The notes under the pieces: model-generated
Databases searched by the model: none
The model's input: the letters and a program-made list of their open reading frames with translations, nothing else
Told to the model about the DNA's origin: nothing
Program-made: the position numbers and the translations under genes
Assembly (NCBI GenBank): GCA_033764095.1
Contig: JANRJF010000068.1
Location: 4,199 to 68,198 of the forward strand
Direction: 5' to 3'
Origin: Deltaproteobacteria bacterium
GTDB taxonomy: Bacteria; Desulfobacterota; Binatia; HRBIN30; CADEER01
Length of the DNA stretch: 64,000 nucleotides
Part shown: in pieces, positions 34,688 to 47,059 of the stretch
Layout: each line of letters begins with the position of its first letter
Position numbering within the stretch: the first letter of the stretch is position 1

Positions 34688-35688
34688 TCGGCGACGCGCA
34701 GCACGCCGGCGCCCTCGAAGCCGTCGTACTTGAGCTGCTGGAGCGCCTGGTTCGCATCGGCGAGATCGAACGGCACGGTGCGTGGTCGGATCGGGATCTC
34801 CGCGGCGAGCCGCAGCAACTCGATGCCGTCCTGGCGGGTGTTGGCGGTGACGCTCTGCAGCGTGCGCTCCTGGAACAGGTGACGCTGGTAGTCGAGCGGC
34901 GGGATGGCGCTCAGGTGGATGCCGGCGAGCGCCAGTGTGCCGCCGCGGTCGAGTGCCGCCAGGGCAGGGAGGACGAGCTCGCCGGCCGGCGCGAACAACA
35001 CCGCGCTGTCGAGTGGCTCGGGCGGCGCGTCGGCCGCGGCCCCGGTCCACTCGGCGCCGAGCGACGCGGCGAGGCGGCGATGGCGTGCCTCACGGGTCAT
35101 GACGAAGACGCGGCAGCCGAGGTGGCGCGCGACCTGGATGGCGATGTGCGCCGAGGCGCCGAACCCGTAGAGGCCGACGCGCCCGCCGGGGCGCAGGTTG
35201 GCGCGGCGCAGGGCGCGGTAGCCGATGATGCCGGCGCACAGCAGCGGCGCGGCCTCGGCGTCGCCGATCGCGTCGGGGAGCACATAGGCGAAATCTTCGC
35301 GCACCAGCGCGTAGTCGGCGTAGCCGCCGTCCGCCGACCAACCGGTGAAGCTCGCCGCCGCGCAGAGGTTCTCGTCGCCGCGTTGACAGTACGCGCAGAC
35401 CCCGCAGGTCGAGCGCAGCCAGGCGATGCCGACGCGCTGGCCGGCGGCGAGGCGGGTGCAGCCGGGGCCGAGCGCGTCGACCACGCCGACCACCTGGTGA
35501 CCGGGCACGACGCGCGGGCGCTGCACCGCGAGGTCGCCCTCGACGACGTGCAGATCGGTGCGACAGATGCCGCAGACGTGCACCCGCACCCGCACCTCGC
35601 CGGCGCCGGGATCGGGCGGCGGTCGTTCGACCAGTTGCAGCGGCGCGGTGTCCACCGGCGCCGGTCGCTCGAGTTGCATGGCGCGCAT
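34684..35688 (-). CDS. Zinc-dependent alcohol dehydrogenase family protein (MDR superfamily)
   Basis: MRAMQLERPAP...VCGICRTDLHVVEGD..GHQVVGVV..CGVCAYCQRGDENLC (structural Zn Cys cluster)...GLYGFGASAH. Confidence 0.8.
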   Translation of the reverse strand: MRAMQLERPAPVDTAPLQLVERPPPDPGAGEVRVRVHVCGICRTDLHVVEGDLAVQRPRVVPGHQVVGVVDALGPGCTRLAAGQRVGIAWLRSTCGVCAYCQRGDENLCAAASFTGWSADGGYADYALVREDFAYVLPDAIGDAEAAPLLCAGIIGYRALRRANLRPGGRVGLYGFGASAHIAIQVARHLGCRVFVMTREARHRRLAASLGAEWTGAAADAPPEPLDSAVLFAPAGELVLPALAALDRGGTLALAGIHLSAIPPLDYQRHLFQERTLQSVTANTRQDGIELLRLAAEIPIRPRTVPFDLADANQALQQLKYDGFEGAGVLRVAD

Positions 35689-35782
35689 GACGGCATTGTG
35701 CGGCGCGCCGTCCCGTCGCCGCAAGCGCGATCCGGGTCGCGCACTTGCCGGTTGCGCGCCGACGCGGCAGCATCGCCGCCCG

Positions 35783-37579
35783 ATGGCGTCCCGAAAGCGC
35801 AGCGCGGCGCGTCCGCAGCCGGCCGCGGTCGCGCGCGCGACGCCGCCTCCGGCCGTGGCGCCGGCCGCACCCGCCGGCCGCACGGCGCTGCGGATCTTCT
35901 TCGCGCTCTTCGTGCTCTACGCGTGCAACGCCCGCATGCTGGCGCCGGGCGACAGCATTCCGACCCGGCGACTGCCATTCAGTCTGCTGCGCGAGGGCAA
36001 CCTCAACCTCGACGAATTCAGTTGGGAGATGAGTCCGAAGGGGCGACTGCCGTACTACGTCCATCCCGCCAATGGGCACGTCTACTCCGTGTCCACCTTC
36101 GCCACCGCGGTGGTGATCGCGCCGCTCTACGTGTTGCCGGCCTGGTGGCTGGCGCGTGCCGGCGTGCCGTACGACGACGTCCGGGCGCGCGTCGTCGAAG
36201 TGGTCATGGAGCACGTCTCCGCCGCGATGCTGGCGGCGCTCTCGGCGGCGTTGCTGTTTCTGCTGCTGGCGCGACTGACGACGCGCGGCTGGGCGCTAGC
36301 GCTGACGCTGCTCTACGCGCTCGGCACCTCGACCTGGTCGATCGCTAGTCAGGCGTTGTGGCCGCACGCCCTGTCCGAGCTGACGCTGGTGGGCCTGTGT
36401 CTGGGGCTACTCGCTCGCACCCCGACGCGCGCGCAACTGGTCGGTGCCGGTCTGATCGCGGCGCTGATGGTCGCCAATCGGCCGCAGATGCTCGCCTTCG
36501 CCGCGCTCGCCACCGGGTTCGTCGCGGTGCACCACCGCCGGCATCTGCTCGCCTTCGTCGCGCTGCCAACGCTGCTGGGGGTCGGTCTGGCGGCGTACAA
36601 TCGCGCCATCTTCGCCAGTCTGACCGGCGGCTACGGTGGGCTCGGTGTACTACGTGGCGCCCCGGGGCAGGGGCTGGCCGGGATGCTGTTCAGCCCCAAT
36701 CGCGGCCTGCTGGTCTACACGCCGATCATGGCCTTCGCGCTGTGGGGCGGCGTGCGGCTGTGGCGCGTCGCCGGCGTGCCGCCGTGGTTGCGGTGGTTGA
36801 GCGTCGGCGTGCTGGCGCACGTGCTCGTGCACGCCAGCTTCCGCGCCTGGTGGGGCGGCTACACCTATGGGCCGCGCTACTTCACCGACGTGCTGCCGGC
36901 GCTGACCATCTTTCTCGTCTACGGGCTGGTGCCGTACTGCCGCCAGCGCGCCGTGTTCGCGCTGGCGGTGGCGCTGGCGATGTGGGGCATCGGCGTGCAG
37001 GCGATCGGCGTCTACGCCGCCGACGACAGTTGGAATCGTACGCCGCAGACGCTGGGCCGGTCGCTGCAGCGGCTGTGGGATTGGAACGACCTGCAGATCG
37101 CGCGCGCCGCGCGCGACGGCTTTCGCGGTGGCGAGCTGGCAGCGGTGATGCTGGACGCCTTCACCGACTCCCAGGCGGCGCGGCTGGTGCCGCTCGAGCC
37201 GACCGACCTCGCCTCGACGATCGACGTGCCCGACCTTCCCGAGACGGTGCCGGCGGGGTCGCGGATGCGGCTGACGGCGCGAATCGTGAATGGCGGCGCG
37301 CAGGCCTGGCCGGCATTCAACGGCGAAGGCGTGATCAGCGCGCGCAACCTCGTCTATCTGATGGTGCGCTGGTTCGACGGCGAGCGCATGGTCGACGGCG
37401 ATGTGCTGCCGTTGCCGGAGAACCTCGCGCCGGGCGAGGCGCTGGACATGGCGCTGCCGCTGGCCGCGCCGAAGCAGCCGGGTATCTACACGCTGGAGGT
37501 GCGCGTCACCCAGGCGCTGGACGGGCGGCGCGGTGTGATCGGGCCTGACGCTTTGCGGCGCGAGATCCGCATCGAGTGA
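35783..37579 (+). CDS. Multi-pass integral membrane protein with C-terminal extracytoplasmic domain, GT-C-fold glycosyltransferase-like
   Basis: 598 aa with about 11 TM helices (W/L/A-rich), then an approximately 190-aa soluble domain. Start set at MASRKRSAARP. Divergent from the alcohol dehydrogenase gene. Confidence 0.5.
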   Translation: MASRKRSAARPQPAAVARATPPPAVAPAAPAGRTALRIFFALFVLYACNARMLAPGDSIPTRRLPFSLLREGNLNLDEFSWEMSPKGRLPYYVHPANGHVYSVSTFATAVVIAPLYVLPAWWLARAGVPYDDVRARVVEVVMEHVSAAMLAALSAALLFLLLARLTTRGWALALTLLYALGTSTWSIASQALWPHALSELTLVGLCLGLLARTPTRAQLVGAGLIAALMVANRPQMLAFAALATGFVAVHHRRHLLAFVALPTLLGVGLAAYNRAIFASLTGGYGGLGVLRGAPGQGLAGMLFSPNRGLLVYTPIMAFALWGGVRLWRVAGVPPWLRWLSVGVLAHVLVHASFRAWWGGYTYGPRYFTDVLPALTIFLVYGLVPYCRQRAVFALAVALAMWGIGVQAIGVYAADDSWNRTPQTLGRSLQRLWDWNDLQIARAARDGFRGGELAAVMLDAFTDSQAARLVPLEPTDLASTIDVPDLPETVPAGSRMRLTARIVNGGAQAWPAFNGEGVISARNLVYLMVRWFDGERMVDGDVLPLPENLAPGEALDMALPLAAPKQPGIYTLEVRVTQALDGRRGVIGPDALRREIRIE

Positions 37580-39723: not shown

Positions 39724-39741
39724 CGACGAGGACTTTTTTGG

Positions 39742-39770
39742 TTGATTTCACTCTGGGCCACTCATAGTAT
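39742..39770 (+). promoter_or_regulatory. Sigma-70-like promoter TTGATT-N17-TAGTAT upstream of the secreted-paralog genes
   Basis: Read directly. The -35/-10 hexamers with 17-nt spacing lie in an AT-rich 61-bp divergent spacer. Confidence 0.4.
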
Positions 39771-39784
39771 GCGGCCGGAATCCA

Positions 39785-40702
39785 ATGCGGCGGGTAGGAC
39801 TGATCAACACGTTGGCACTGGCCCTGATTGGGCTGGCACTGACGGGAACGGCACGAGCCGAGGCACCGCCGCAGCGTCTCCCCTCCGCAGTGCTGGTCTG
39901 GCCGCTGATCACCGTCGAGGGCGGCGGCTCGGTGACCGACACGCGCGTCGAGTTGGTCAACCTGTCGCCACGGCCGATCGAGGTGAAGTGCATCTACGTC
40001 TTCCAGACCTCGTGCGGCGGAATCGACTTCCATCTCTACCTGACGCCGAATCAGCCGGCGACCTGGCTGGCCAGCAAGGGCATGTTCAACGGGCTGACCG
40101 CGGTGCCACCGTTCTCGTCGAGTGGCGAGCTCAAGTGCATCGTGCAGCCCGATGAGCAGGGCGTCGATCGCCATAACGCCATTCAGGGCCGCGCCGCGGT
40201 GTTCGGTGCCGATGGACAGACGATCGGGTACAGCGCCGTCGGCTTCCTGCGCCTGACCGACGGGCCGCTCACCAACGTCATCGAGTTGGACGGCGACACG
40301 TACTCACAGTGCCCCGACGAGCAGCACTTCCTCTTCCTCGCCAGCGAGGCCAACCCGCTGACCGAGAGCGAGATCGTCCTGGCGCCGTGCACCGAGGACT
40401 TCGAAAATCGCATTCCCACCACGGTCACGGTGCAGTTCCTGATCATCAACGAGTTCGAACAGCAGCTGTCGGCGGCGACCACGGTCAACTGCTACACGCG
40501 CAAGACGCTGCGTCAGATCAGCCAGTCGTTCACCCGCGCGACGCTGGGATCGGAGACCGGCCATGTGATCGTGCGCGGCGTCCAGTCGCCGATCCTGGCG
40601 ATGGTGGTCGACCGCTTCCTGACGCCGGACATGGCGCGCGGCACGGCGGGCAACGAGCCGGCGCTGCGCGGCGGCCGCTCGGCGGAGATCCGCATCCCAT
40701 GA
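39785..40702 (+). CDS. Secreted Cys-containing protein of unrecognised family (paralog A)
   Basis: Signal peptide MRRVGLINTLALALIGLALTGTARA. About 45% identical to the next gene over about 280 aa, with conserved Cys, NEFEQ, IVRGV.SP and GGRS motifs. Confidence 0.6.
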   Translation: MRRVGLINTLALALIGLALTGTARAEAPPQRLPSAVLVWPLITVEGGGSVTDTRVELVNLSPRPIEVKCIYVFQTSCGGIDFHLYLTPNQPATWLASKGMFNGLTAVPPFSSSGELKCIVQPDEQGVDRHNAIQGRAAVFGADGQTIGYSAVGFLRLTDGPLTNVIELDGDTYSQCPDEQHFLFLASEANPLTESEIVLAPCTEDFENRIPTTVTVQFLIINEFEQQLSAATTVNCYTRKTLRQISQSFTRATLGSETGHVIVRGVQSPILAMVVDRFLTPDMARGTAGNEPALRGGRSAEIRIP

Positions 40703-41964
40703 AGCGGACTGCGTTGTTCGCGCTGCTGGCGCTGATGCTGGCGCAGCCGTCGATCGCGGCGCCGACCGCCGCCGTGGATTGGTCGACGGTGCTCAAGGCG
40801 CTGGGCGGCGCGCTCGACTCGTGGCGCATCTCGCCCTTCAGCAACGGCACGCCGACCGTCGGGCCGACGCGCACGCGCACCCCGATCGCCGGCACGGCGA
40901 CGCGCGGCCCGTCGAACACGCGCACGGCGACGCGCACGCGGACGCCGACCAATACGCGCCCGTTCACCTCGACCGCGACCCCGTCGCGGACCGCGACCGC
41001 GACGCGGCCGCCGACCGAAACCAAGACGCCGCGGCCGGCGACCAATACGCCGACGCCGCGGCCGACCTCGACGCCGGTGCCGACGCTGGCGAGCGACGGC
41101 CGCATCGCCTTCGCCGAGGCCGAAGGCATTCCGCCAGCGCAGAAGCTCGCCTCGGCGTTCATCGTGTTCCCCTACATCGTCTCCAGCGCGACGCAGGATA
41201 CCCGCATCGAGCTGATGAACATGTCGAACCGCGAGATCGAGCTGCAGTGCTTCTACGTCCGGCAGTCCGATTGCCTGGAGGTCGGCTTCTTCGTCCGCCT
41301 GACCGCCAATCAGCCGCTGTCCTGGCTGGCGTACGACGGGGCCAGCAATCCGGTCGTCTTTTCCGCCGTGCCGCCGTTCGACGGCGTCGGGGAGATGAAG
41401 TGCGCGGTGGCCGCCGATCGGCCGGAACTGAGCGCCCACAACGCGCTGCAGGGTCGCGCGCTGATCTACGAGAAGGCGACCGGCGAGACGGTCGGCTACG
41501 ACGCCATCGGCTTCCAGCGCCTGACGCCGGGAGGCTACAGCGGGGTCATCGACCTGGACGGCTTCACTTATGAAGAGTGTCCCGATCGCCTGCACTTCGC
41601 CGTGCTGTCGCGTCAGAGCGGCGGTCCGGTGAGCGAGCTGATCACGGTGCCGTGCGCCGAGGATCTGCTCACCCAGACGCCGACCCAGACGGTCGTGCAG
41701 ATGCAGATCGTCAACGAGTTCGAGCAGGTGTTTTCGTCGTCGTACAAGTTCAGCTGTATCACCAGCCAGCCGTTCTCGAAGTTCGGCACGCTGGGCAAGT
41801 CGACGCTCGGCACCGATGCCGCTCACCTGATCGTGCGGGGCGTCTCGTCGCCGCTGATCGGCCTCGTCATCGACCGCTTCTCGGGCCAGAACAACACGCT
41901 GCACACCACCGCCAACGAGCCGTTCCTCGAGGGCGGGCGGTCCTCCACCGTCATCTTCCCCTGA
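40699..41964 (+). CDS. Secreted Cys-containing protein of unrecognised family (paralog B) with Thr/Pro/Arg-rich low-complexity linker
   Basis: Signal peptide MKRTALFALLALMLAQPSIAAP, then a 70-aa TRTRTP/TPTPRP linker, then the domain homologous to paralog A. ATG overlaps the previous stop. Confidence 0.6.
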   Translation: MKRTALFALLALMLAQPSIAAPTAAVDWSTVLKALGGALDSWRISPFSNGTPTVGPTRTRTPIAGTATRGPSNTRTATRTRTPTNTRPFTSTATPSRTATATRPPTETKTPRPATNTPTPRPTSTPVPTLASDGRIAFAEAEGIPPAQKLASAFIVFPYIVSSATQDTRIELMNMSNREIELQCFYVRQSDCLEVGFFVRLTANQPLSWLAYDGASNPVVFSAVPPFDGVGEMKCAVAADRPELSAHNALQGRALIYEKATGETVGYDAIGFQRLTPGGYSGVIDLDGFTYEECPDRLHFAVLSRQSGGPVSELITVPCAEDLLTQTPTQTVVQMQIVNEFEQVFSSSYKFSCITSQPFSKFGTLGKSTLGTDAAHLIVRGVSSPLIGLVIDRFSGQNNTLHTTANEPFLEGGRSSTVIFP

Positions 41965-42062
41965 CCGGGAAGTGCCTCCGGCGGGGAGGCCGGCGGGGTG
42001 AAGATCGCCGTTGCCGGTTCCGGCGGCGCGCCTATAATCGCGCCGCATAGGAAGCCGACGGC

Positions 42063-42203
42063 GTGCGCGAGTTCTTCTACGGGCTGATTCTCGGGGCGAC
42101 GGCGATGTACCTGTTCGAGTACTTCGACGCGCCGGGTGTGCTCGCCTACCTGAACAGTGCCACCCAGTCGGCCGTGCAATCGACGCACGGCTACTCGCGC
42201 TGA
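42063..42203 (+). CDS. Possible small membrane protein (46 aa, GTG start)
   Basis: VREFFYGLILGATAMYLFEYFD... contains one TM helix. Preceded by AGGAAG and by a TATAAT (42033-42038) flanked by a GC palindrome. Not in the ORF track because it is under 60 aa. Confidence 0.3.
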   Translation: MREFFYGLILGATAMYLFEYFDAPGVLAYLNSATQSAVQSTHGYSR

Positions 42204-42226
42204 TCCGCGGCGGCGCTCGGCGGCGC

Positions 42227-43042
42227 TCAGTTGAGTGCCAGAACGCGGCGGCCGCAGCCGGAGCGCGCGGCCTCCTGCAGGCGCAGGCGGATCTCGTCGC
42301 GTTCCATGTGACCGCGCTGACGCAGTTTGCGCAGCGTCCGCGCGATGCACTGGACGTACTCGCGCTGGTTCTCCCACTCGGCGTCGGCCGTCGGCCCCTC
42401 GCACGGGCAGGCCTGCAGCAGCGCGCAGCCGTCACCCAGCACCAGCTCGTCGGGCGGGGTTTCGGCGCAGGCGTCGCACGCGTCGCCGATGCTGTCGGCG
42501 TCGGCATCGGCCTGGTCGTTGTTGGCGACCGCGGGGCAGTTGTCGGCCGCGTCGGCAACGCCATCGCCATCGCCGTCGGGGGACGCCGCCGGATCGGGGA
42601 TCGCCACCAGCGTCACCGCAAAGCCGCTCCGGATCCCTTTCGGCGAGCTCAGGTGGAGGCGGATCTCGTCGGTGCCGCTGTGTTGCCGGCGACCGCTGGT
42701 GAGCAGCAGCGGGACGCCGTTGACGCGCATGTCGAGCACCATCGTCAGTCCGGCGTCGCCCAGCCTCTGGATGAAGCCAGCGCCGCTCAACGTCAGGGTA
42801 TCGGTCGACCAGCGCACGCTGGTGACCGCCTCGACGGCGTACTCGACCCCGGGGAGGACGCTGAGCTCAAAGGAGCCGCGCAGCGGTTCGGTGCGGGTGG
42901 TCGCCGGGTCGCAGGTCGTGCAGTGCGTGGTCAGCCGGCTCTCACCGGTGAGCACGTAGCGGATGCTGTCGGCATGCGCCGGCCGCGCGGCGCACAGGGC
43001 GCCGGCGGCGAGCAACAGGCCCAGCGCACGACGCCAGGGCAT
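42227..43042 (-). CDS. Secreted protein with thrombospondin type 3-like calcium-binding repeats
   Basis: Signal peptide MPWRRALGLLLAAGALCAARPAHA. DGDGDGVADAADNCPAVANNDQADADADSIGDACDAC is a TSP3-type Dx(D/N)xDGxxDxxDNC repeat. Confidence 0.6.
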   Translation of the reverse strand: MPWRRALGLLLAAGALCAARPAHADSIRYVLTGESRLTTHCTTCDPATTRTEPLRGSFELSVLPGVEYAVEAVTSVRWSTDTLTLSGAGFIQRLGDAGLTMVLDMRVNGVPLLLTSGRRQHSGTDEIRLHLSSPKGIRSGFAVTLVAIPDPAASPDGDGDGVADAADNCPAVANNDQADADADSIGDACDACAETPPDELVLGDGCALLQACPCEGPTADAEWENQREYVQCIARTLRKLRQRGHMERDEIRLRLQEAARSGCGRRVLALN

Positions 43043-43635: not shown

Positions 43636-45432
<1,797 letters not shown>

Positions 45433-45748: not shown

Positions 45749-47059
45749 TCAATCGTAGTATTCGAGCCCGAGGTGGGTGATCAGCTCTTCGCCACGCAGG
45801 TGGCGGAGGGTGTTCTTGAGCTTCATCAGCTGGATGAAGAGGTCGTGCTCCGGGTAGAGGCCGGGGGCCGTCTGCGGGCTCTTGAAGTAGAAGGAGAGCC
45901 ATTCCTGCACCCCGTGCATGCCGGCACGGTGCGCCAGGTCGAGGAACAGGGCCAGGTCGAGGACCAGCGGGGCGGCCAGGATCGAGTCGCGGCAGAGGAA
46001 GTTGAGCTTGATCTGCATCGGATAGCCGCACCACCCGAAGACGTCGATGTTGTCCCAGCCTTCCTTGTTGTCGCCGCGCGGCGGGTAGTAGTGGATGCTG
46101 ACTCGGTGGACGTAGTCGCGGTAGAGTTCGGGATGGAGGTCCTCGCGCAGGATGACGTCGAGCACCGACAGCTTGCTCTCCTCCTTGGTGCGGAATGAGG
46201 ACGGCTCGTCCAGCACCTCGCCGTCGCGGTTGCCGAGGATATTGGTCGAGAACCAGCCCTTCAGGCCGAGCATGCGCGCCTTGAGGCCGGGCGCGATGAT
46301 CGTCTTCATCAGGGTCTGACCGGTTTTGAAATCTTTACCACAGATGGGCACGCCGCGGTCGTTGGCCAGCTCGACCAGGGCCGGGATGTCGGCGGTCAGG
46401 TTGGGGGCGCCGTTGGCGTAGGGAATACCGAGCTTCAGCGCCGCGTAGGCATACAGCATGCTCGGCGCGATGGCCGGGTCGCTGTTGCGAAGCCCGGCCT
46501 CGAAGGCCTGCAGCGACTGGTGCACCGGCTGCGGCTGCAGGAAGCTCTCGGTGCTGCCGCACCAGATCATCACCAGGCGATCGGCGCGTTGGCGGGCGCG
46601 AAACTCCTCGATGTCGCCCATCAACTGCTCGGCCAGCGCCATTTTCGACGCCGCCTGCTTCACGTGTGGGCCGTTCAGGCGCTTGACGTAGGTGGGGTCG
46701 AACGCCGCCGGCCAGGGCCGCACCGCCTCGAGCTCGTCGCGCACGGCGTGCAGCTGCGTGGCGTCGAGCACGCCGGCCTTGAGGGCGCTCTGGTAACAGG
46801 TGTCGGGAAAGATGTCCCAGGCGCCGAAGGCGAGATCGTCGAGACCGGCCAGGGGCACGAAGTCGCGGATCAGCGGAGTGCGGTTGTCGGTACGTTTGCC
46901 GAGCCGGATGGTGCCGAGTTGGGTCAGCGACCCGATCGGCTGTGCCAGTCCCTTGCGCGCCAACTCGACGCCGGCGACCAGCGTGGTGCTGACTGCGCCG
47001 AGACCTGGCAGCAGAACTCCGAGCCGGCCGGCGGCAGGAGCGATGCGCGCGGCGGTCAT
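45749..47059 (-). CDS. ino1: myo-Inositol-1-phosphate synthase (MIPS)
   Basis: NGAPNLTADIPALVELANDRGVPICGKDFKTGQT and SVLDVILRED are MIPS catalytic-region motifs. 436 aa. Confidence 0.8.
   Translation of the reverse strand: MTAARIAPAAGRLGVLLPGLGAVSTTLVAGVELARKGLAQPIGSLTQLGTIRLGKRTDNRTPLIRDFVPLAGLDDLAFGAWDIFPDTCYQSALKAGVLDATQLHAVRDELEAVRPWPAAFDPTYVKRLNGPHVKQAASKMALAEQLMGDIEEFRARQRADRLVMIWCGSTESFLQPQPVHQSLQAFEAGLRNSDPAIAPSMLYAYAALKLGIPYANGAPNLTADIPALVELANDRGVPICGKDFKTGQTLMKTIIAPGLKARMLGLKGWFSTNILGNRDGEVLDEPSSFRTKEESKLSVLDVILREDLHPELYRDYVHRVSIHYYPPRGDNKEGWDNIDVFGWCGYPMQIKLNFLCRDSILAAPLVLDLALFLDLAHRAGMHGVQEWLSFYFKSPQTAPGLYPEHDLFIQLMKLKNTLRHLRGEELITHLGLEYYD

Follow-up and report, generated by a model that had tools for sequence, protein, structure and literature searches.

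What do two adjacent genes encoding exported, Cys-containing paralogues do, when neither product resembles a described protein family, and does their adjacency matter? The question is raised by genes A and B at positions 39785 to 41964 of a 64,000-nucleotide (nt) stretch of contig JANRJF010000068.1, from the metagenome-assembled genome (MAG) of a Deltaproteobacteria bacterium of the Binatia; this whole stretch, called the window below, has a G+C content of ∼70%. A and B belong to a large undescribed family whose named members are restricted to Binatia. The very large size and lineage-specificity of this family (judged from named records), the pairing of its genes as its most conserved property, and a conserved N-terminal helix in B all go beyond the first-pass annotation of the window, which had been made from the DNA letters alone. 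The features of the pair are as follows.

39785..40702, + strand: gene A, an open reading frame (ORF) of 305 amino acids (aa), with a signal peptide at about residues 1-25 followed by the family domain, without a linker
40699..41964, + strand: gene B, an ORF of 421 aa encoding an exported paralogue of A
40699..40761, + strand: signal peptide of B, MKRTALFALLALMLAQPSIAA, recognized by inspection; helix modelled at residues 2-13
40774..40839, + strand: conserved N-terminal helix segment of B, VDWSTVLKALGGALDSWRISPF, recognized by its conservation in orthologues and as a modelled helix
40840..41085, + strand: Thr/Pro/Arg-rich low-complexity linker of B, 82 aa (residues 48-129), recognized by its composition and low predicted local distance difference test (pLDDT) values
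41086..41961, + strand: family domain of B, ∼290 aa, all-beta, recognized by alignment with A, the six matched Cys residues and the model

The description of A and B as adjacent paralogous genes of 305 and 421 aa with conserved Cys positions was confirmed. Both ORFs are present, the ATG of B (40699) overlaps the TGA of A as ATGA, and BLASTP aligned the two products with 122/282 identities (43%, E = 4e-79), which is far beyond chance. Six Cys residues are equivalent, namely 69, 77, 118, 176, 202 and 236 of A and 184, 192, 235, 294, 319 and 353 of B. The shared motifs listed in the first-pass annotation are all present, with corrections of detail: A reads VWP where B reads VFP, and the common form of another motif is TY..CPD..HF. 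The chains end in ...GGRSAEIRIP (A) and ...GGRSSTVIFP (B), and the final Pro is nearly invariant across the family. Signal peptides had been claimed for both proteins, and inspection agrees: A starts with MRR, a hydrophobic core and ARA↓E, and B with MKR, a hydrophobic core and SIAA↓P, both having the form of Sec signal peptides. The basic n-region, hydrophobic core and AXA-type cleavage site were also seen in the orthologues, while no lipobox Cys is present in the N-termini of A and B. A protein 100% identical to B (P0389), from an NCBI MAG, bears the title 'MAG: hypothetical protein SF182_04960 [Deltaproteobacteria bacterium]'. The conserved homologues of the plus-strand proteins number in the hundreds, and the long antisense ORFs that cover the region (e.g., 40513..42570, minus strand) were therefore rejected as high-GC shadow ORFs.

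The claim that the family is unrecognized was borne out by searches of Pfam-A, NCBIfam, PHROGs, PADLOC and PDB sequences. Neither A nor B matched Pfam-A or NCBIfam at E ≤ 1, save for a noise-level match of the B linker to a mucin model, and PHROGs and PADLOC returned nothing beyond this linker noise. No PDB sequence matched the single proteins, and a 38-sequence profile matched no PDB chain at E ≤ 10. When 46 diverse family members were scanned singly against Pfam at E ≤ 10, no recurrent family emerged, and a literature search did not find a description of the family. The first-pass annotation had named a confident match to a well-characterized enzyme or lectin family as the outcome that would make the pair ordinary. 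Profile and structure searches returned no such match: for curated families of enzymes, lectins or carbohydrate-binding modules (CBMs), nothing rose above noise in Pfam, NCBIfam, PHROGs and PADLOC, and lectin and GH2 structures gave template modelling (TM) scores ≤ 0.2.

The family is nevertheless very large. Homologues of A numbered 365 in a word-indexed search, and a profile search of 1.84 billion cluster representatives (clusters defined at 50% identity) found 1462 clusters at E ≤ 1e-3, of which 646 were at E ≤ 1e-10. With few exceptions, the informative organism names are all Candidatus Binatia or labels often put on such MAGs (Deltaproteobacteria, Thermodesulfobacteriota, Desulfurellales, 'Bacterium HR30'); one Terriglobales MAG, one Candidatus Dormibacteraeota protein and one Syntrophobacteraceae entry are probably mis-binned. 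No relatives were found on 2.9 million viral contigs. At ∼25% identity, residues P40, T53, N59, C69, W94, G99, G114, C118, C176 and C202 (numbering of A) are invariant, and D52, Q90, P91, S97, N131, D205, E223, E225 and the C-terminal Pro, among others, are nearly so. Large multidomain relatives also exist, in which the domain is fused to beta-propellers (Vgb-lyase-type), FG-GAP, CARDB, CarboxypepD_reg, dockerin or EF-hand domains.

The conservation of the tandem arrangement, a check proposed in the first-pass annotation, was examined with a hidden Markov model built from the family alignment and searched against the six-frame ORFs of all fetched loci. A same-strand tandem pair, consisting of a short member followed by a member with an N-terminal extension, is present in 32/34 species-representative loci. 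Distant paralogues (25-30% identity) are paired as well (L004, L036, L039, L040 and L042), and L041 contains four members in a row; the L004 proteins (365 and 411 aa) are 33% identical to each other. Intergenic distances within pairs are -4 to +50 nt. Multidomain relatives are paired too: at L043 the domain closes a 1443-aa protein and, 1 nt beyond that gene, opens a 639-aa protein. Protein P0151 carries two full domains in a single chain. In a neighbour-joining tree the first- and second-position genes fall into two distinct clades whose internal groupings resemble each other; the pair is therefore older than the split between these genomes and has been co-inherited. The tree also suggests that the A/B split arose separately in the two major subfamilies, or else was homogenized.

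The flanks of the pair differ between clades. In the window, genes for a polytopic membrane protein, an LMWPc protein, an SDR protein and a NUDIX protein lie upstream, and a 46-aa ORF, a TSP3 gene, a 90-aa ORF and the genes for RpoD and inositol-phosphate synthase lie downstream. This block is kept in all loci where A is at least 51% identical (the rpoD-linked clade). In a sister clade (42-50% identity), whose B protein is also stalked, the pair adjoins NAD-glutamate dehydrogenase, GNAT, ferredoxin-reductase-type and 2Fe-2S ferredoxin genes, and the other subfamilies occupy yet other genomic positions. Family members thus have no constant partner other than one another. A phyletic scan of genomes was confined to the close subfamily, the broad alignment being too diverged for this purpose; nearly every genome matched carries a single stalked-type locus, and at least two of the stalked-type genomes hold separate loci of stalk-less paralogues too. 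Overall, the fold is of a common kind and the family may be grouped with exported beta-sandwich binding modules that have PT-type linkers; its unusual, robust feature is obligate gene pairing.

Some family members lack the stalk or carry further domains. The stalk-less arrays comprise four intact genes at L041 (7887..12951) and, at L040 (7812..15979), two intact genes along with several fragments that carry frameshifts; this suggests local duplication and decay, or assembly errors. Multidomain relatives were recorded at L043 (5668..11920) and as P0143, P0147, P0151, P0155, P0168, P0199, P0201, P0219 and P0260, and some of them carry only the N-terminal half of the family domain.

B differs from A in what precedes the domain. 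Between its signal peptide and linker lie the 22 residues of VDWSTVLKALGGALDSWRISPF, with the helix motif VDWxxVLxALGGALDSWR. This segment was found in all rpoD-linked loci, and W28, A34, L35, S41, W42 and R43 vary little or not at all among 37 B orthologues. The helix was modelled at residues 28-43 with moderate pLDDT; these values, together with the disordered linker that follows, indicate that it is apparently not packed against the domain. The low-complexity spacer reported in B is real, although at 82 aa it is longer than the 70 aa given earlier; Thr makes up 35% of it, Pro 20% and Arg 13%, and its DNA consists of imperfect repeats of 6-27 nt. Residues 44-150 are disordered in the AlphaFold model (pLDDT 35-42). 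Counted from the predicted start codon, 92-187 residues precede the domain in B orthologues of the rpoD-linked clade, and 58-281 do so in those of the sister clade.

Structure models were used to compare the domain with known folds. The AlphaFold2 model of A, based on a 38-sequence alignment, is all-beta, with a pLDDT of 90.6 and a predicted TM score (pTM) of 0.84. In B, pLDDT is 80-95 over most of residues 151-421, and the predicted strand order is the same as in A. Each subunit apparently consists of two beta-sandwich domains in these models. Foldseek searches of the PDB and BFVD found no full-length relative (best query-normalized TM score, TMq, 0.29; most 0.1-0.2). Generic weak matches to sandwiches and jelly-rolls comprised calicivirus and picorna-like capsids, XepA, vicilins, a fungal lectin, PNGase F, RbmA and SIDT ectodomains. 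The sole strong match was partial: TM1070 of Thermotoga maritima (1nc7) matched both models with Foldseek probability 1.00 and target-normalized TM scores (TMt) of 0.63-0.71, and the B model also matched Anabaena ASRT (2ii7) with probability 0.99. No internal repeat of the two halves was detected by hhalign with three settings (best E = 0.05 over 12 columns). An S-x-h-h-h-x-P strand does occur three times in A (34-40 SAVLVWP, 195-201 SEIVLAP and 299-305 SAEIRIP), which we regard as anecdotal.

The ASRAH sandwich, to which TM1070 and ASRT belong, is a probable binder of sugars or small molecules, with a cleft formed partly by the dimer interface (De Souza, Iyer, Aravind; PMC2739507). Its domains 'always' occur as dyads or tetrads, a conserved Asn ends strand 2 and stabilizes a tight turn, and a Trp starts strand 1 (PMC2739507). 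Proteins of the ASRT/TM1070 type (PF07100, DUF1362; 1nc7, 2ii7) are small, eight-stranded all-beta sandwiches, which part of the A and B models appears to resemble, and the dyads and tetrads with a cleft completed by the partner find a parallel in paired proteins with apparently two sandwiches each. The Asn that precedes the tight turn after strand 2 has a possible counterpart in the invariant N59 of the A/B family, which ends the second predicted strand (51-59); the equivalence to N32 of TM1070 is by position in the strand only. The aromatic residue of the family (W/F/Y39) lies near the end of strand 1, and not at its start as the ASRAH Trp does (TM1070 W7). In other respects A and B are unlike ASRT/TM1070. 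No sequence-profile relation was seen (A, B and the 46 members against Pfam at E ≤ 10), and the His and Cys of the ASRAH SHEshChhN signature are absent from the A/B family. The structural match covers less than half of the domain. Proteins of the ASRT type are cytoplasmic and comprise 115-125 aa, whereas the A/B family is exported, Cys-containing and ∼280 aa long, and its gene neighbourhoods are without sugar-metabolism genes.

Two further comparisons concern the general layout. PNGase F and DUF2961 (two jelly-rolls) and the oligomers of a single jelly-roll such as XepA are exported or extracytoplasmic all-beta proteins with a tendency to oligomerize (background in PMC8812541). A and B, apparently with two sandwich domains each, would be similar in these respects, and weak Foldseek matches were obtained to 1pnf, 6i56 and the calicivirus and picorna-like capsids. 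These matches have TM scores of 0.13-0.24 and root-mean-square deviations (rmsd) of 15-27 Å, with domain topology and orientation not in common. For the A model, 1pnf ranked only 43rd (TMq 0.21, rmsd 19 Å), and no Pfam match places the family in the double jelly-roll clan (CL0612). There is no sequence similarity to this group either, and a trimeric or pentameric, capsomer-like assembly is unsupported for A/B. The TonB protein with its Pro-rich spacer and the cellulases with PT linkers combine an N-terminal anchor or targeting element, a variable spacer and a C-terminal globular beta domain. B shares the layout of targeting element, variable low-complexity spacer and beta domain, but no homology links it to the C-terminal domains of TonB proteins or to CBM and cellulase modules (Pfam, NCBIfam). 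Its signal peptide looks cleavable, unlike a stable transmembrane anchor, and subunit A has no counterpart in the TonB and cellulase systems.

We tentatively favour the reading that A/B is a Sec-exported hetero-oligomer forming a tethered, non-catalytic, ligand-binding (probably glycan-binding) module of the cell envelope; we hold this to be quite possible, though short of probable. A and B would pair as the two subunits, an association suggested by the gene pairing, and disulfides may brace the two beta-sandwich domains of each. One sandwich per subunit, resembling ASRT/TM1070, would bind a sugar or small molecule in a cleft completed by the partner. Subunit A would be free, while the helix of B may hold B to a partner or to the membrane, and the Thr/Pro/Arg stalk, maybe glycosylated, would let the A/B head reach out from the anchor point. 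The head, made up of four beta-sandwiches, could then bind a glycan or another ligand of the envelope or environment, in the periplasm or at the cell surface. The domains found fused to the family domain in the multidomain relatives are typical of extracytoplasmic binding or processing proteins, which counts in favour of this reading.

Several observations weigh against the tethered binding module. The ASRAH-type fold match spans only ∼130 of 280 residues and lacks a sequence-profile link, and any two linked genes would be expected to give mirrored trees. Carbohydrate-metabolism genes are not found in the neighbourhoods, where the flanks are unrelated, clade-specific housekeeping genes. In the sister clade, B opens with a hydrophobic segment of the MAELLRILAAFL type and lacks a separate VDW...SWR helix, and therefore tethering by the helix cannot be general. 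No SLH, PEP-CTERM, MYXO-CTERM, LPXTG, lipobox or other anchor or sorting motif was detected in A or B (Pfam, NCBIfam). The cell-surface tether or adhesin suggested in the first-pass annotation is thus one possibility, but was overstated, as no known anchor or sorting signal was found. Finally, the conservation of D52, N59, Q90, N131, D205, E223 and E225 fits an enzyme as well as a binder.

Given these conserved acidic residues, enzyme function is a serious rival, albeit one that we judge rather unlikely. A and B would then be secreted enzymes, such as glycoside hydrolases, polysaccharide lyases or peptidases, whose beta-sandwich or jelly-roll family would be new and whose active site would consist of the conserved acidic and polar residues; they would act either as paralogues of different specificity or as a catalytic dimer. 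The seven residues are invariant or nearly so down to 25% identity and both paralogues retain all conserved polar residues, while expansion in arrays, frequent for carbohydrate-active enzyme families, the fusions to dockerin, CARDB and Vgb-lyase-type propellers, and weak Foldseek matches to PNGase F, GH2 sandwich domains and transglutaminase also point this way. However, no enzyme family of Pfam or NCBIfam was matched, all matches to enzyme structures have TM scores ≤ 0.21 and fall in non-catalytic sandwich domains, the NEFEQ motif lies in a predicted hairpin turn of the A model rather than along a cleft strand, and no substrate-related genes are present in the neighbourhoods. The stalk of B, its conserved N-terminal helix and the weak fold matches to the biofilm scaffold RbmA, capsid jelly-rolls and oligomeric XepA would suit a structural surface element instead (S-layer-like lattice, adhesin or matrix), with B as the stalked anchor and A as its partner. 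The presence of the stalked pair at one locus in nearly every species-representative genome matched, over a wide range of identity, fits this idea, as does the synteny in one clade of the TSP3 protein, which might take part in the rpoD-linked clade, and of the 46-aa membrane protein. We consider this explanation unlikely: besides the missing anchor families, the TSP3 gene is convergent and is missing in the sister clade, whose B is stalked too, the other subfamilies occur without a stalk and in arrays, and the widely variable length of the pre-domain stretch (58-281 residues) argues against a lattice of fixed geometry.

Certain binary toxins typically come as tandem pairs of secreted paralogues, and the weak fold matches included domains of Cry toxins, XepA and phage tail proteins. 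It is nonetheless highly improbable that A/B is a binary toxin or a cassette of the effector-immunity, phage-derived or defence type: the pair has a fixed chromosomal position among housekeeping genes and a long vertical inheritance, and no pore-forming or enzymatic toxin domain was found. A phage or defence origin was rejected, since the 2.9 million viral contigs contained no relatives and PHROGs and PADLOC matched nothing beyond the low-complexity linker. The tethered binding module may also be taken a step further, to the doubtful proposal that the stalked A/B pair is a class-wide core envelope complex of Binatia, in which the four sandwiches would form a ligand-binding head of a new kind, held by the B helix docked on the dedicated 46-aa membrane protein co-conserved in the rpoD-linked clade, and the stalk-less arrays would provide a repertoire for different ligands.

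Binatia (Binatota) occur worldwide but have yet to be cultured; methylotrophy, the degradation of alkanes and aromatics, and CO oxidation have been linked to this class (PMC8262859; bioRxiv 10.1101/2022.03.11.484050). The size of the family, its pairing, its apparent lineage-specificity and the recurrence of one pair type across the Binatia sampled make it a good candidate for a defining feature of their envelope. A family definition would replace thousands of 'hypothetical protein' labels, and the confident two-domain beta-sandwich model, with only a partial relative in the PDB, is a target for structural biology. If the head binds glycans, the ASRAH-type sandwich would extend to exported proteins; if the core envelope complex exists, it would be a previously unrecognized, lineage-specific receptor or binding system. 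On its own, the family does not open a long-standing question, and it is useful for annotating an uncultured class.

The expression signals and neighbouring genes of the pair are listed below.

35558..37579, + strand: polytopic membrane protein (∼600-670 aa) whose C-terminal region is Ig-like; its gene and the pair are syntenic in the rpoD-linked clade
39737..39768, + strand: promoter-like block upstream of A, recognized by upstream alignment and consisting of a T-tract, TTGATT (-35-like), 17 nt and TAGTAT (-10-like)
42011..42038, + strand: promoter-like block of the 46-aa ORF, recognized by upstream conservation (conserved TTGcsg-16/17-TAtaaT)
42063..42203, + strand: small ORF of 46 aa with a single transmembrane segment, MREFFYGLILGATAMYLFEYFDAPGVLAYLNSATQSAVQSTHGYSR, immediately downstream of B
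42227..43042, - strand: TSP3-repeat protein, 271 aa, exported, with a Cys-rich C-terminal region (PF02412, E 5.5e-7, above the cut-off)
43636..45432 and 45749..47059, - strand: genes for an RpoD-type sigma factor and inositol-1-phosphate synthase, just downstream of the pair

The sigma-70 promoter upstream of A had been called near-consensus, which is too strong: TTGATT-17-TAGTAT matches the E. coli sigma-70 consensus at 8/12 positions, and a promoter scan did not flag the block. Across 16 aligned upstream regions of orthologues, TTTT(T)GGTTGATTT is (near-)invariant and is followed ∼17 nt later by TAGTAT, TAAGAT or similar, in regions that are otherwise unalignable save for a block further upstream that codes for the N-terminus of the divergent NUDIX gene. 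This conservation supports a real promoter directly upstream of A. A and B are probably one bicistronic, translationally coupled unit with its own conserved promoter-like element.

The genomic surroundings of the pair are a stable block of housekeeping genes. The TSP3 gene, described earlier as following the pair, in fact lies on the minus strand and converges on B, and it is found beside the pair in the rpoD-linked clade alone, so the proposed module with a TSP3 neighbour does not extend to the sister clade or the other subfamilies. A functional link to the TSP3, RpoD, NUDIX, SDR and LMWPc genes was rejected, since the synteny is limited to the clade with at least 51% identity. Among the fetched loci, the 46-aa ORF is found only in the rpoD-linked block, whose B proteins have the VDW...SWR helix. 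Where aligned whole, it is 66-87% identical between rpoD-linked loci, in which A is 51-74% identical; it is split by a frameshift in L016 and lies beside a single family member in L027. It matched no Pfam or NCBIfam family. The 46-aa protein is a possible accessory of the A/B unit, although its membership is uncertain.

Two minor observations concern other neighbours. At L042 (11127..14214, minus strand), the distant pair adjoins a minus-strand cluster of small genes with a weak GspH-like pseudopilin match, which may hint at a link with type II secretion or pili, or be a coincidence. The polytopic membrane protein at 35558..37579 gave a weak, below-cut-off match to NF047440 (LA_3751/LA_3752 putative glycosyltransferase, E 3e-7) and, judging from this match, might glycosylate Thr/Pro-rich exported proteins.

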